Positions 2,867 to 10,681 of a stretch of DNA of 22,376 nucleotides are shown piece by piece. The notes beneath the pieces were generated by a model. It did no database searches. It was not told the DNA's origin and worked only from the letters and a program-made list of their open reading frames with translations. Within the stretch, counting starts at the first letter, position 1. Each line of letters opens with the position of its first letter. This DNA is from a virus. Position numbers and translations under genes: made by a program. The DNA lies in the UHGV virus genome UHGV-0378502, one strand, 5' to 3'.

Positions 2867-3937
2867 ATGGCTAACGCCTGGCTCAGATTATGGCATGACA
2901 TGCCAAATGACCCTAAGTGGCGAACAATTGCCAGGGTGTCAGGGCAGCCAATTGCAACAGTGATGGCAGTGTATATCCACCTCCTGGTGAGCGCGTCACG
3001 AAATGTCACGCGAGGTCACATTGATGTCACGACAGAAGATTTGGCAAGTGCGCTCGACGTGACAGAAGAGGTAATTGATTCAATTTTGCAGACGATGCAG
3101 GGGCGGGTACTTGATGGTGATTTAATCACTGGATGGGAAAAACGCCAGGTGCTGAAAGAGGACAACGGCAATATTTTGCAAACCGCAAAATCTCCGGCAG
3201 AGCGCAAGAGGGCGCAGCGAGAGAGGGAAAGAAAGCGGGAACAAAATGGCGATTGTCACGGCGAGTCACGAAATGTCACGCACATGTCACGACGAGTCAC
3301 GACAGATAAAGATACAGATAAAGATACAGATCAAGAAGATCAAAACACTATGGTCCATGGCGTAAAAAACGCCACGAACCAGGCAGGGGATGTTCAGACC
3401 GTCACTCCTGGCCAGCCCGCAGGCACGACACCGGAAGCCGATTCAGCGTATGCGCTGAAAGCCGATTCGGGCGCTGTGCAGCAGGTGATGACCGCAAGGC
3501 AGGAGCAATCACACCAACTTCAGCAGCCTGAAGCCGATTCCGCCATTCAGCGGGAAGCCGATCGGGTAGTCCCGGAAAACACCGGGCAGCCTGTGGGACG
3601 AGTGGATTATCCTGATGTGTTCGAACAGGTCTGGCGGGAATACCCGTTGCGTGCCGGGGCAAACCCGAAGAAATCCGCTTTCAGTGCCTGGAAAGCCAGA
3701 TTACGCGAGGGGGTGCCACCAGAGGCCATGCTGGATGGCGTGAGGCGTTACGCAAGATACCTTGCGGCTACCGGGAAAACGGGAACGGAATTTGTTCAGC
3801 GAGCGACGACGTTTTTTGGACCGGACCGGAATTTTGAAAACCCCTGGCTGCTCCCGGTAAGCGGCACGAACAACCAGCGTTGTGTGAATCATATTTCTGA
3901 ACCGGATAACGAAATTCCGCCGGGCTTCAGGGGGTAA
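2867..3937 (+). CDS. Phage replication initiator (replisome-organizer / O-like protein) containing internal iterons
   Basis: ATG 2867 with GAGG upstream. The N-terminus (MANAWLRLWHDMPNDPKWRTIAR...) resembles the phage replisome-organizer N-terminal domain; an acidic low-complexity linker (DKDTDKDTDQEDQ) separates it from a C-terminal domain; position is immediately downstream of the cro/cII-like genes. Family assignment from memory. Confidence 0.75.
   Translation: MANAWLRLWHDMPNDPKWRTIARVSGQPIATVMAVYIHLLVSASRNVTRGHIDVTTEDLASALDVTEEVIDSILQTMQGRVLDGDLITGWEKRQVLKEDNGNILQTAKSPAERKRAQRERERKREQNGDCHGESRNVTHMSRRVTTDKDTDKDTDQEDQNTMVHGVKNATNQAGDVQTVTPGQPAGTTPEADSAYALKADSGAVQQVMTARQEQSHQLQQPEADSAIQREADRVVPENTGQPVGRVDYPDVFEQVWREYPLRAGANPKKSAFSAWKARLREGVPPEAMLDGVRRYARYLAATGKTGTEFVQRATTFFGPDRNFENPWLLPVSGTNNQRCVNHISEPDNEIPPGFRG
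2995..3031 (+). repeat. Iteron cluster 1 inside the initiator gene (4 x GTCACG at about 10-bp phasing)
   Basis: GTCACG/GTCACA at 2995, 3005, 3015 and 3026 (spacing 10, 10, 11), with an inverted CGTGAC copy near 3058. Confidence 0.7.
3255..3345 (+). repeat. Iteron cluster 2 (5 x GTCACG at helical phasing) plus adjacent AT-rich tandem repeat; candidate origin of replication
   Basis: GTCACG at 3255, 3265, 3275, 3286 and 3296 (spacing 10, 10, 11, 10), followed by gataaagataca x2 and an A-rich stretch (3302-3345). The arrangement is analogous to ori-lambda lying inside gene O. Confidence 0.65.
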
Positions 3938-5090: not shown

Positions 5091-5259
5091 TTTTGGTTCA
5101 ACTAAATACAACGTCAGTTTTGAAGAATGGCATGAACTGTTAATGGACTATGCAGAGTTACGTGGTGGCAGTGCTGCTGATGCTGAAGCATGGCGTGATG
5201 ATTATGAAGCAGGAAAAACTCCGGTCGAAGCATATTGTGATGAGTGGGGCGATGAATGA
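5083..5259 (+). CDS. Small hypothetical protein (58 aa), translationally coupled
   Basis: ATG 5083 overlapping the stop of the previous ORF; product MADFGSTKYNVSFEEWHELLMDYAELRGGSAADAEAWRDDYEAGKTPVEAYCDEWGDE. Falls below the 60-aa cut-off of the supplied track and was found by reading the sequence. Confidence 0.45.
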   Translation: MADFGSTKYNVSFEEWHELLMDYAELRGGSAADAEAWRDDYEAGKTPVEAYCDEWGDE

Positions 5260-5314
5260 GCGAGGTTAATTATCAGGAAGGGCATGAAACGGCGGGGCAA
5301 GCAAAAACAGTGGC

Positions 5315-5572
5315 ATGGCGATATCGCTACGTGAAAAAAAAGGCGTTACGGACTTTCAGGGGAAGTAGTGGTCTGGTGACTGGAAATATGTACCGAAAAA
5401 AGAGGATTGTAACGACAGGCCGAACTATGAAATTCAGGCCTTATTCACTGCCCCGCCAGTCCCGGTTACATCAGAAGAACTGGTTAAAGCTGTGCACTTT
5501 TATGAACAACTAAAACGCGAAAATCCACCAGCATCCGGAAACCTGATTACAGATTCCCAGATAAGGCAATGA
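5315..5572 (+). pseudogene. Interrupted ORF: protein-like reading frame broken by a single in-frame TAG (5366-5368); alternatively read via the overlapping frame-0 ORF 5256..5513
   Basis: Frame beginning at ATG 5315 reads MAISLREKKGVTDFQGK-[TAG]-WSGDWKYVPKKEDCNDRPNYEIQALFTAPPVPVTSEELVKAVHFYEQLKRENPPASGNLITDSQIRQ. The supplied track instead calls a very basic 85-aa ORF in another frame (5256..5513). Two A_AAA_AAG heptamers occur in the frame-0 ORF (5336-5342 and 5396-5402). Confidence 0.3.
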
Positions 5573-5742
5573 GCTACCTAGCGCAGAACGGGCTGATAAG
5601 TATGGGGAATGTTTTACGATGAATATTTAGACTAAAGAGTTTGTAACGCTATGTAAGTGATTTTTTCTGGTTTAGATATTTATATGTCCGGCCAAATTGA
5701 GGTGTGTTTAAATGTAATTGCACATTGATTGTAGGAGGAATA

Positions 5743-5922
5743 ATGAAAAACGCATTGCAGTTTTTGTTTGTTGCGTTTTGGTTGTTCGTATCATGTATGC
5801 CCATCATCTTCACAGCAAGGTATATGGAAAAAGTTGATGTTTTGATATTAATATTTGGATATATAAATGCCCTTTTTTTAGGGGTGTTCATGGCGGTCAT
5901 GTGCATTGAATACTGGCGGTAA
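5743..5922 (+). CDS. Small hydrophobic membrane protein (59 aa, two predicted TM segments)
   Basis: ATG 5743 preceded by AGGAGGA (5733-5739); product MKNALQFLFVAFWLFVSCMPIIFTARYMEKVDVLILIFGYINALFLGVFMAVMCIEYWR; very AT-rich surroundings (5580-5950). Confidence 0.5.
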   Translation: MKNALQFLFVAFWLFVSCMPIIFTARYMEKVDVLILIFGYINALFLGVFMAVMCIEYWR

Positions 5923-6180
5923 ATACAGCGAACGCCATTGGTTTAGTTGGATATTTACTGTGCCGGACAAAAACGGTTTGCGGGGAAATCTTAGTTAAGT
6001 AGAATGACTGCGGGTGCTTGAGGCTATCTGTCTCAGGCATGAACACCAAAAGGCAGATAGAGAAAAGCCCCAGTTAACATTACGCGTCCTGCAAGACGCT
6101 TAACATTAATCTGAGGCCATATCTATGCGACACATAGAGATTAGCCTCTTACGGACCGAAAGGTCAAGGAGAAGCAGGCT

Positions 6181-6336
6181 ATGAAGCAGCAAAAGGCGAT
6201 GTTAATCGCCCTGATCGTCATCTGTTTAACCGTCATAGTGACGGCACTGGTAACGAGGAAAGACCTCTGCGAGGTACGAATCCGAACCGGCCAGACGGAG
6301 GTCGCTGTCTTCACAGCTTACGAACCTGAGGAGTAA
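6181..6336 (+). CDS. hokD: Hok-family type I toxin (HokD/RelF-like, 51 aa)
   Basis: Product MKQQKAMLIALIVICLTVIVTALVTRKDLCEVRIRTGQTEVAVFTAYEPEE matches my recollection of HokD/RelF; long structured leader upstream and a GC hairpin plus T-run downstream, as expected for hok mRNAs. Confidence 0.85.
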   Translation: MKQQKAMLIALIVICLTVIVTALVTRKDLCEVRIRTGQTEVAVFTAYEPEE

Positions 6337-6406
6337 GAGACCTGGCGGGGGAGAAATCCCTCGCCACCTCTGATGTGTCAGGCATCCTCAACGCACCCGC
6401 ACTTAA

Positions 6407-6431
6407 CCCGCTTCGGCGGGTTTTGTTTTTT
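6407..6431 (+). terminator. Intrinsic terminator at the 3' end of the hok transcript
   Basis: CCCGC ttcg GCGGG stem-loop (6407-6420) followed by TTTTGTTTTTT. Confidence 0.6.
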
Positions 6432-6503
6432 CCTGGCATTCTGGTTTACAATTCGCACGTCAGCCTGAACACCTGACACCTGCTGCGCCAGCAGAGAAAA
6501 CAG

Positions 6504-6776
6504 ATGGCGCACAAAACCAAATTTCACAATTCTGATACCGACCTTGCCATCCGGCATGAGCGGCGTTCACACGCATTTAAAACCGACTGGTACCAACACC
6601 CACCATGTACTGAAGAACAGGCCGAATGGCTGATTCATTCTTACCGCAGGCGCGGGTTCGAGGTTAAGAAAGCTCTCAGTCTCGACTATCGGCACTGGAT
6701 AATCTCTGTCAGGCTGCCTTATTCCGAACGCCCACCACGTCCGTCCCGCACTTTCCAGCAACGGATCTGGAGGTAA
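6504..6776 (+). CDS. Hypothetical protein (90 aa)
   Basis: ATG 6504; stop immediately followed by a GGAGG RBS and the start of the next gene; no recognisable family. Confidence 0.5.
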   Translation: MAHKTKFHNSDTDLAIRHERRSHAFKTDWYQHPPCTEEQAEWLIHSYRRRGFEVKKALSLDYRHWIISVRLPYSERPPRPSRTFQQRIWR

Positions 6777-10431: not shown

Positions 10432-10507
10432 GGCCCTTTAGCTCAGTGGTGAGAGCGAGCGACTCATAATCGCCAGGTCGCTGGTTCAAATCCAGCAAGG
10501 GCCACCA
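10432..10507 (+). tRNA. tRNA with CAT anticodon (Ile2/lysidine-type or Met)
   Basis: Manual cloverleaf: acceptor GGCCCTT/AAGGGCC, D-arm GCTC-AGTGGTGA-GAGC, anticodon stem AGCGA/TCGCC with loop CTCATAA, T-arm GCTGG-TTCAAAT-CCAGC, discriminator A, encoded CCA. Resembles the ileZ-type tRNA I recall from Stx-converting phages. Confidence 0.8.
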
Positions 10508-10604: not shown

Positions 10605-10681
10605 GCGTTGTTAGCTCAGCCGGACAGAGCAATTGCCTTCTAAGCAATCGGTCACTGGTTCGAATCCAGTACAACGCGCCA
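10605..10681 (+). tRNA. tRNA-Arg (anticodon TCT, reads AGA/AGG)
   Basis: Manual cloverleaf with perfect acceptor stem GCGTTGT/ACAACGC, D-arm GCTC ... GAGC, anticodon stem ATTGC/GCAAT with loop CTTCTAA, T-arm ACTGG-TTCGAAT-CCAGT, discriminator G, encoded CCA. Confidence 0.85.

Follow-up and report, generated by a model that had tools for sequence, protein, structure and literature searches.

The viral genome UHGV-0378502, analyzed here as a stretch of 22,376 nucleotides that we call the window, carries an AT-rich segment next to a hok toxin locus, and this segment raises the question of whether the small open reading frame (ORF) within it is a gene and, if so, of what kind. An earlier note, made from the sequence alone, had described the segment as an islet encoding a hydrophobic peptide of 59 amino acids (aa), had suggested that the islet might be an insertion, and had raised the possibility of a second small-toxin module beside hok. 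We found that the ORF has a diverged counterpart of identical length in a second lineage, and we refer to the two as type A (the form in the window) and type B. Their comparison points to a real gene. The explanation that we favor as a whole, and regard as probable, is that the ORF-bearing islet is a cargo insertion carrying a gene for an inner-membrane hairpin, a phage accessory factor. The elements at issue are as follows.

5623..5967, no strand assigned: AT-rich islet, 345 bp, 35% GC, T-rich, delimited by composition and by comparison with an islet-less prophage
5733..5738, + strand: Shine-Dalgarno (SD) sequence AGGAGG, 4 nt 5′ of the ATG, read from the sequence
5743..5922, + strand: 59-aa ORF (type A), ATG to TAA, MKNALQFLFVAFWLFVSCMPIIFTARYMEKVDVLILIFGYINALFLGVFMAVMCIEYWR, predicted to encode a two-helix membrane hairpin

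The physical description in the earlier note held up well: the ORF has the expected limits and a consensus ribosome-binding site, and its 59-aa product is very hydrophobic. Kyte-Doolittle analysis gave two hydrophobic blocks and a grand average of hydropathy (GRAVY) of 1.31, and AlphaFold2, run with a small alignment, predicted a helix-loop-helix hairpin (helices 2-26 and 32-58; mean predicted local distance difference test score, 72), in line with the two transmembrane helices proposed before. The SD sequence is altered to AGGGGG in one haplotype (A5736G), which could still pair with the anti-SD sequence through a G-U pair. The peptide had been said to belong to no recognizable family, and we likewise found no match in Pfam (E up to 0.1), PHROGs, NCBIfam, PADLOC or PDB sequences. 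We rejected the best candidates for a family assignment, phrog_2720 (E 0.93) and TIGR04104 (E 0.2), and a Foldseek search against the PDB returned generic helical hairpins with E values above 2. The PADLOC defense-system models matched neither type A nor type B, and a literature search with the peptide string returned nothing.

The statement that the islet holds a single small ORF has to be corrected, since the minus strand contains an ORF of 85 codons (5649..5906) and the + frame can also start at a GTG (5704), giving 72 aa. When the islet was shuffled with dinucleotides preserved, 13% of the shuffles contained an ATG ORF of ≥59 codons. Because equally long ORFs arise at this rate, and because the longer antisense ORF exists, the window alone cannot establish a gene; the evidence for one is comparative. 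T-rich sequence, moreover, yields hydrophobic peptides by composition alone. We rejected the antisense 85-aa ORF as spurious, its frame being broken in type B; the name “hornerin” that it bears in phages ON470612 and ON470619 looks like an annotation artifact. GenBank and UniProt list the 59-aa ORF only as “hypothetical protein,” often in the 72-aa GTG-start version, which we also rejected, as type B does not conserve the extension.

Scanning 1.84 billion representative proteins exhaustively with HMMER, we identified a relative that is itself 59 aa long and aligns from residue 1 to 59 with residues 1 to 59 of the type A peptide (41% identity, E 3.7e-9). The common form of this type B protein, MRKILMYLCISIWIVISCVPIILTSEYLTEASIMALMFGHANALCIGVFISIIYIECWR, is encoded on more than 1000 contigs. 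Among 5426 complete E. coli genomes, 1045 carry type B at ≥99% identity, and it is likewise unannotated in RefSeq. Its place in a representative locus is given below.

L012, 5001-5180 and 5235-5300: type B ORF and hok remnant, respectively (also present in loci L011, L013-L016 and L173-L180)

The type B ORF is flanked by ttcA and an integrase fragment on one side and by uspF/ompN on the other, a setting that we read as a heavily deleted prophage-derived remnant; ttcA is the Rac integration site. About 60 nt 3′ of the type B stop codon lies a truncated hok 3′ remnant, which is 81% identical to positions 6249-6310 of the window. The homology of types A and B is therefore supported both by sequence and by their common gene order upstream of hok.

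The type A and type B ORFs align without gaps at 60% nucleotide identity and have start and stop codons in common. Their differences are distributed 25/16/31 over codon positions 1, 2 and 3, and a Nei-Gojobori estimate gave proportions of nonsynonymous (pN) and synonymous (pS) differences of 0.33 and 0.72, respectively, the latter saturated, for a pN/pS ratio of 0.46. The pair thus shows what is expected of a coding gene, namely a frame kept between diverged homologs with fewer nonsynonymous than synonymous changes. In 200,000 simulation runs, each introducing 72 random substitutions into the type A sequence, the frame remained open with start and stop in 0.24% of runs, at least 24 residues remained identical in 0.75%, and both were true in a fraction of 1e-5. 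The + frame is the only frame open in both lineages, and DNA similarity is concentrated in the ORF, continuing beyond it for about 25 nt after the stop and in a weak stretch before the SD sequence. Invariant residues include W13, S17, C18, P20-I-I, T24, F38-G39, N42-A-L, E56 and W58-R59. The small-residue stripe on helix 2, G39xxxA43xxxG47xxx(A/S)51, is kept in both types, with G47 replaced by V in one type B variant. Because frame, length, start and stop have been kept without an indel across 40% nucleotide divergence, we consider the ORF very probably a genuine gene, and likely one on which purifying selection acts now or acted in the recent past.

Types A and B would together make up a new two-member family of small membrane proteins, apparently restricted to Escherichia and Shigella. 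No third lineage, intermediate or homolog in another genus was recovered in a profile search of 5.8 billion proteins or in DNA-pattern scans of GTDB, IMG/VR and JGI metagenomes, and distant blastn searches of E. coli genomes and phages gave nothing beyond type A, type B and one degraded type A copy. All relatives found thus fall into type A at ≥91% identity, type B at ~41%, and that single degraded copy.

The alternative that survives best, which we nevertheless consider unlikely, is that the ORF currently serves no function, being a frame in decay or one never under selection, within an AT-rich spacer carried along with hok, and that its hydrophobicity is a product of T-richness. Several observations weigh on this side and against a selected gene. 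Besides the frequency of ORFs of this length in shuffled islets and the longer ORF on the other strand, the Prokaryotic Genome Annotation Pipeline (PGAP) leaves the ORF uncalled in every RefSeq genome inspected, and the “hypothetical protein” under some RefSeq matches proved to be the end of the upstream gene. Among 86 type A copies (20 haplotypes), a sample preselected for good protein matches, 7 of the 180 nucleotides of the ORF vary, comprising 1 synonymous and 6 nonsynonymous changes (V16A, M28I, V31I, I37M, Y40H and L44I), a ratio no better than neutral. The flanks of the same copies vary at 24 of 241 sites, so that the ORF is only modestly less polymorphic. In addition, a more diverged type A copy, locus L010, carries several indels that frameshift the ORF at several places, with hok perfectly intact, and in loci L169 and L170 the ORF is broken after codon 41 by what look like insertion sequence (IS)-type breaks, as it is in the database proteins P0026 and P0027. 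The constraint estimate itself is a single pairwise comparison of two lineages with saturated synonymous sites, and the membrane role and oligomerization that we propose for the peptide are deduced from its sequence.

Intactness has to be read with similar care. The ORF is intact in 155 of the 158 scorable type A copies sampled, and these copies, all ≥95% identical, could be intact because they are young. Within the lineage, the evidence on selection is therefore weak or uninformative, because the copies are too similar, the changes too few and the samples preselected. What argues against a functionless frame comes from the deeper comparison: an indel-free frame of constant length, start and stop between lineages that differ at 40% of nucleotides (P ~0.002 that the frame stays open, 1e-5 together with residue identity), the pN/pS of 0.46 with its excess of changes at third codon positions, the conservation of polar and small residues within the helices, and the survival of this frame, and no other, in both lineages.

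The breaks after codon 41 all fall at positions 5865-5866 (TATATA|AAT), where L169, L170, P0026 and P0027 independently depart into unrelated sequence, a pattern suggesting that insertions recur at this site in the AT-rich core. A second position of interest was a homopolymer associated with frameshifted protein variants in read-archive assemblies.

5873..5879, + strand: T7 homopolymer in codons 44-46, with CCC on its 5′ side and AGGGG on its 3′ side

A targeted search of complete genomes found the run unchanged in at least 1551 of 1554, with T8 in at most 3 of the 1554 and T6 in none. We therefore rejected phase variation at this run, and the frameshifted database proteins are rare alleles or assembly errors.

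Type A is widespread. Of the 5426 complete E. coli genomes, 1568 carry the islet at 95 to 100% identity, nearly always chromosomally. Carriers include O104:H4, ST131, ATCC 25922 and ATCC 8739; ATCC 25922 (Seattle 1946) has type B in addition to type A, whereas strain H10407 has type A only. The islet is missing from K-12 MG1655, where relBE abuts hokD; K-12 data sets are consequently uninformative on the ORF. One common haplotype, ~98% identical, resides in Qin remnants of many phylogroup A/B1-type genomes (L004, ~3102-3198, and L007). In these remnants, a truncated ISNCY-family transposase replaces the hok coding sequence from its start codon, beside ydfW/flxA, and the islet and the sok/leader region are kept.

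We then considered where the islet begins and ends and how it came to lie in front of hok. The following features bound it.

5256..5622, + strand: upstream nin-region gene, a frameshifted pseudogene in the window (PGAP note, “frameshifted; internal stop”)
5978..6005, + strand: probable hok promoter, with −35 TTGCGG at 5978-5983, a 16-nt spacer and −10 TAGAAT at 6000-6005, found in a relaxed consensus scan and assigned its function by inference
6012..6183, + strand: hok mRNA leader/sok region (Rfam RF01794, 106.7 bits, E 1.1e-23)
6181..6336, + strand: hok (HokD-type) toxin gene, 51 aa (Pfam HOK_GEF, E 1.2e-23, 82.9 bits; RefSeq hokD)
6405..6422, + strand: terminator-like hairpin ending the hok transcript, at the right end of the islet-plus-hok block, with homology between loci breaking off at 6423/6430

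The Pfam and Rfam matches confirm that the locus adjoining the ORF is indeed hok. The segment is as AT-rich as had been noted: GC content in 200-nt windows is 0.33-0.39 over 5600-5999 (0.33-0.345 at 5600-5899), compared with about 0.47-0.56 in the flanks. The islet-less phage vB_EcoS-689R5 (L097) has both flanks in common with the window, namely the upstream gene end ...TTTTACGATGA and the hok promoter region AAAAACGGTTTGCGGG...; where the window has the 345 bp at 5623-5967, the phage has ~77 bp of unrelated GC-rich sequence. A comparison with related prophages had been proposed in the earlier note, and this one supports the idea of an insertion. The left edge lies directly 3′ of the TGA at 5620-5622, with which the upstream gene truly ends, and the right edge lies 11 bp 5′ of the −35 element of the probable hok promoter; transcription from this promoter would begin near the start of the sok match at 6012. 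In other loci, where the upstream gene is a diverged allele, homology resumes at ~5587-5612 and runs to the hok terminator at ~6423-6430. Thus, the islet and hok of type A prophages travel as one mosaic block of about 5612-6430. Because most phage hok cassettes lack the islet, it is an optional cargo-type insertion or replacement upstream of hok, bounded by the 3′ end of the preceding nin-region gene on one side and the hok promoter on the other.

A 25-nt direct repeat, imperfect at 72% identity, lies on either side of the ORF (5672-5696 and 5947-5971), its second copy overlapping the right edge of the islet; it may be a trace of the origin of the insert or may reflect chance in AT-rich DNA. 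We rejected the idea that the islet is like a miniature inverted-repeat transposable element or an IS, as there are no convincing terminal inverted repeats and this direct repeat is all that was found.

The window is a Qin/Rac-like lambdoid prophage, as in the enterotoxigenic E. coli (ETEC) strain H10407 (NC_017633.1), in which the 371-bp noted stretch has a 100% match. The RefSeq gene order there begins with dicB/ydfD, a Cro/CI-type switch, a YdaT-like gene, replication genes and the DUF977 and DUF7167 genes, followed by two small hypothetical genes and the frameshifted pseudogene. The ORF lies in the stretch that follows, a gap in the annotation within the nin (early-right) region, and beyond it are hokD, a DUF968 (YdfU) gene, RusA, a DUF1133 protein, tRNAs, holins and an endolysin. 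Members of the DUF1133 family are annotated as the Q antiterminator in related phages.

Accordingly placed, the 345-bp islet would be a cargo insertion in the nin region of such a prophage, its one functional element being the gene at 5743..5922 for a 59-residue helical hairpin of the inner membrane. Terminator prediction found none inside the islet and none between the type A ORF and hok. Because type A has neither a recognizable promoter nor a terminator of its own, its gene would most likely be expressed on induction, when transcription reads through the antiterminated early-right operon, with translation starting from the strong SD sequence. The N terminus is positively charged (K2 in type A, R2 and K3 in type B) and the loop is neutral in type A (RYMEKVD) and acidic in type B (SEYLTEAS), from which we infer an N-in/C-in topology. 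The conserved face of helix 2, with its small residues and Asn, suggests self-association or docking on another membrane protein. The hairpin is probably a phage accessory factor at the inner membrane that modulates membrane integrity or a host membrane protein, and it may well inhibit growth when overexpressed. Membrane modulation, exclusion or a link with Hok are candidate roles.

A link with Hok leads to the next alternative. The hairpin and hok might form an ancestral two-gene membrane module, in which the hairpin would gate, enhance or provide immunity to Hok pores at induction, or the hairpin might be a new two-helix toxin or exclusion factor of the glycine-zipper type. This reading stays open because the order of ORF and then hok recurs in two lineages that are 40% diverged and because the small-residue/Asn face is conserved; we give it little credence, however, as most hok cassettes lack the ORF and both genes decay independently. 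Their mutual independence follows from L010, with hok intact and the ORF broken, and from the converse cases in which the ORF is intact and hok is lost, that is, the L004-type Qin remnants (hok deleted by an IS) and type B (hok truncated). On this comparative evidence, neither gene appears to need the other for survival of the host.

A further reading, which we consider quite improbable, holds that the selected unit is DNA or RNA and that the islet acts in cis on hok as an H-NS-bound silencer, an UP-like element or a read-through insulator. In its favor are the position of the right edge, which abuts the hok promoter 11 bp before its −35 element, the location upstream of hok common to both lineages, the ≥95% conservation within type A of the noncoding parts of the islet as well, and the slightly better folding of the + strand RNA compared with shuffles (z −2.06). 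Yet only 3 of the 129 phage records with matches have the islet, homology across the 129 typically starting at ~5965-6009, and conservation between types A and B is frame specific and concentrated in the ORF. Moreover, no terminator is predicted in the islet, and the ORF remains in type B and L004 with hok gone.

Weakest, and in our judgment very improbable, is the proposal of the earlier note that a second type I toxin-antitoxin module is present, in which translation of a 59-aa membrane toxin would be held in check by a cis-encoded antisense RNA. Its attraction lies in the small, very hydrophobic peptide adjoining a genuine type I locus and in the small-residue stripe and Asn conserved on helix 2, which are a lead rather than a test; such stripes occur in oligomerizing and pore-forming helices. 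A consensus scan found no promoter inside the islet on either strand. A relaxed scan (at least 5/6 of the −10 element plus a TG or at least 3/6 of the −35 element) found no sigma-70-like promoter on the minus strand over 5560-6020, although a consensus scan of this kind may miss a weak or non-sigma-70 promoter, and the search for an antisense small RNA promoter advised earlier thus came back empty. On the plus strand, the relaxed scan returned only the hok promoter and an AATAAT within the SD-ATG spacer. Also in favor of a module, type B stays intact in a heavily deleted prophage remnant and has a perfect extended −10 match (TGATATAAT) ~75 nt upstream; against it, this match is polymorphic (T to C at its first base), and none of the several promoter-like matches on the minus strand of type B lies at a position common to type A.

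RNA and protein comparisons gave the same picture. Rfam matches above the gathering score in the window were sok and two tRNAs, with none in the islet, and RNA folding compared with shuffles showed no excess for the antisense strand (z −0.33) and a marginal one for the sense strand. The 59-aa peptide had no similarity to any toxin family, Hok/Gef included. Type I toxins are small and hydrophobic peptides, usually with one helix, and the well-known E. coli examples are single-helix proteins; the peptide studied here is small and hydrophobic but is predicted to form a two-helix hairpin. The ORF has, finally, been lost without consequence in L010. The module is thus not borne out, and the ORF, judged by these comparisons, appears to be neither an autonomous type I toxin-antitoxin module nor dependent on hok.

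Several details of the neighborhood are also of note. An intact homolog of the upstream gene in L006 encodes 171 aa and its end matches 5622; in intact alleles the real stop is the TGA at 5620-5622 rather than 5572, as implied by the PGAP pseudogene call. In L097, the stop of this gene overlaps the ATG of a 36-aa ORF, where the window instead reads ATG-AAT-ATT-TAG after the stop. Upstream of hok, a mok-like frame (window 6126-6185) appears short, at ~19 codons, and its end overlaps the hok start as ATGA; some phage records give mok a long overlap. Farther downstream, RefSeq annotates a 59-aa “hypothetical protein” on the minus strand at 6378-6557 (WP_001112736.1; “mobile element protein” in phage records), which runs antisense to the hok terminator and to the beginning of the gene that follows, overlapping a + strand 90-aa gene at 6504-6776. 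The call looks doubtful, while the better-supported ORF at 5743..5922 is left out of the annotation. Two tRNA genes (10432-10504 and 10605-10678; Ile and Arg according to RefSeq) lie ~4.5 kb downstream of the islet, 3′ of a DNA methyltransferase gene and 5′ of the lysis cassette.

If the gene is real, ~29% (type A) and ~19% (type B) of complete E. coli genomes have a conserved small membrane-protein gene that is unannotated in RefSeq, widely used strains such as ETEC H10407, O104:H4, ST131, ATCC 25922 and ATCC 8739 would be affected, and an Escherichia-restricted family would join the catalog of small membrane proteins. The ORF would also be an inexpensive benchmark for pipelines that drop short AT-rich ORFs from annotation, and, as it recurs directly upstream of hok, one may ask whether a membrane partner accompanies some hok cassettes. 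Unless exclusion, toxicity, modulation of Hok or another phenotype comes to light, the practical consequences are modest.

How does the ORF compare with known kinds of small membrane proteins? Unannotated small membrane proteins of E. coli have been sought by ribosome profiling in a study of CFT073 (bioRxiv 10.64898/2026.09.28.754932), and the ORF resembles such proteins in being a short hydrophobic island or prophage ORF that annotation pipelines overlook and that is confined to E. coli and Shigella. It differs in that no evidence of its translation was found, and SMP7, the one candidate sequence compared, is unrelated to it. With the Hok/Gef peptides of hok/mok/sok loci, the ORF shares a small, hydrophobic product that is predicted to reside in the inner membrane and is physically linked to hok in two lineages. 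It differs in having no HOK_GEF (PF01848) similarity and two helices, where Hok has one helix and a periplasmic tail. It also decays independently of hok, gives no antisense RNA signal and has no demonstrated long leader of the tac/fbi type.

Class II holins and pinholins are two-transmembrane phage lysis proteins such as S21. Like them, the ORF product is a small phage protein whose two predicted transmembrane helices include a stripe of small residues through which it could oligomerize. Unlike them, it is encoded in the nin region, the annotated holins and endolysin of the window lying ~5-6 kb downstream, it has no charged C-terminal tail (it ends in IEYWR), and it has no dual-start motif conserved between lineages and no PHROG or Pfam holin match. 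By position, tail and family, the ORF is not a holin.

The closest comparison is with the moron or accessory cargo genes of lambdoid phages, reportedly a class in the sense of Hendrix and colleagues. Of the properties of this class, we found variable presence and deviant composition and did not find an own promoter and terminator: unlike a strict moron, type A has neither in detectable form, and the extended −10 element of type B is polymorphic. The ORF also differs from morons in its location in the early nin region and in having no sequence relation to any described accessory protein. Like lambdoid morons, however, it lies on a compositionally deviant insert of 35% GC between two conserved phage genes that is absent from a related prophage, and the islet has one small gene outside the core phage cycle, predicted to encode a membrane protein.

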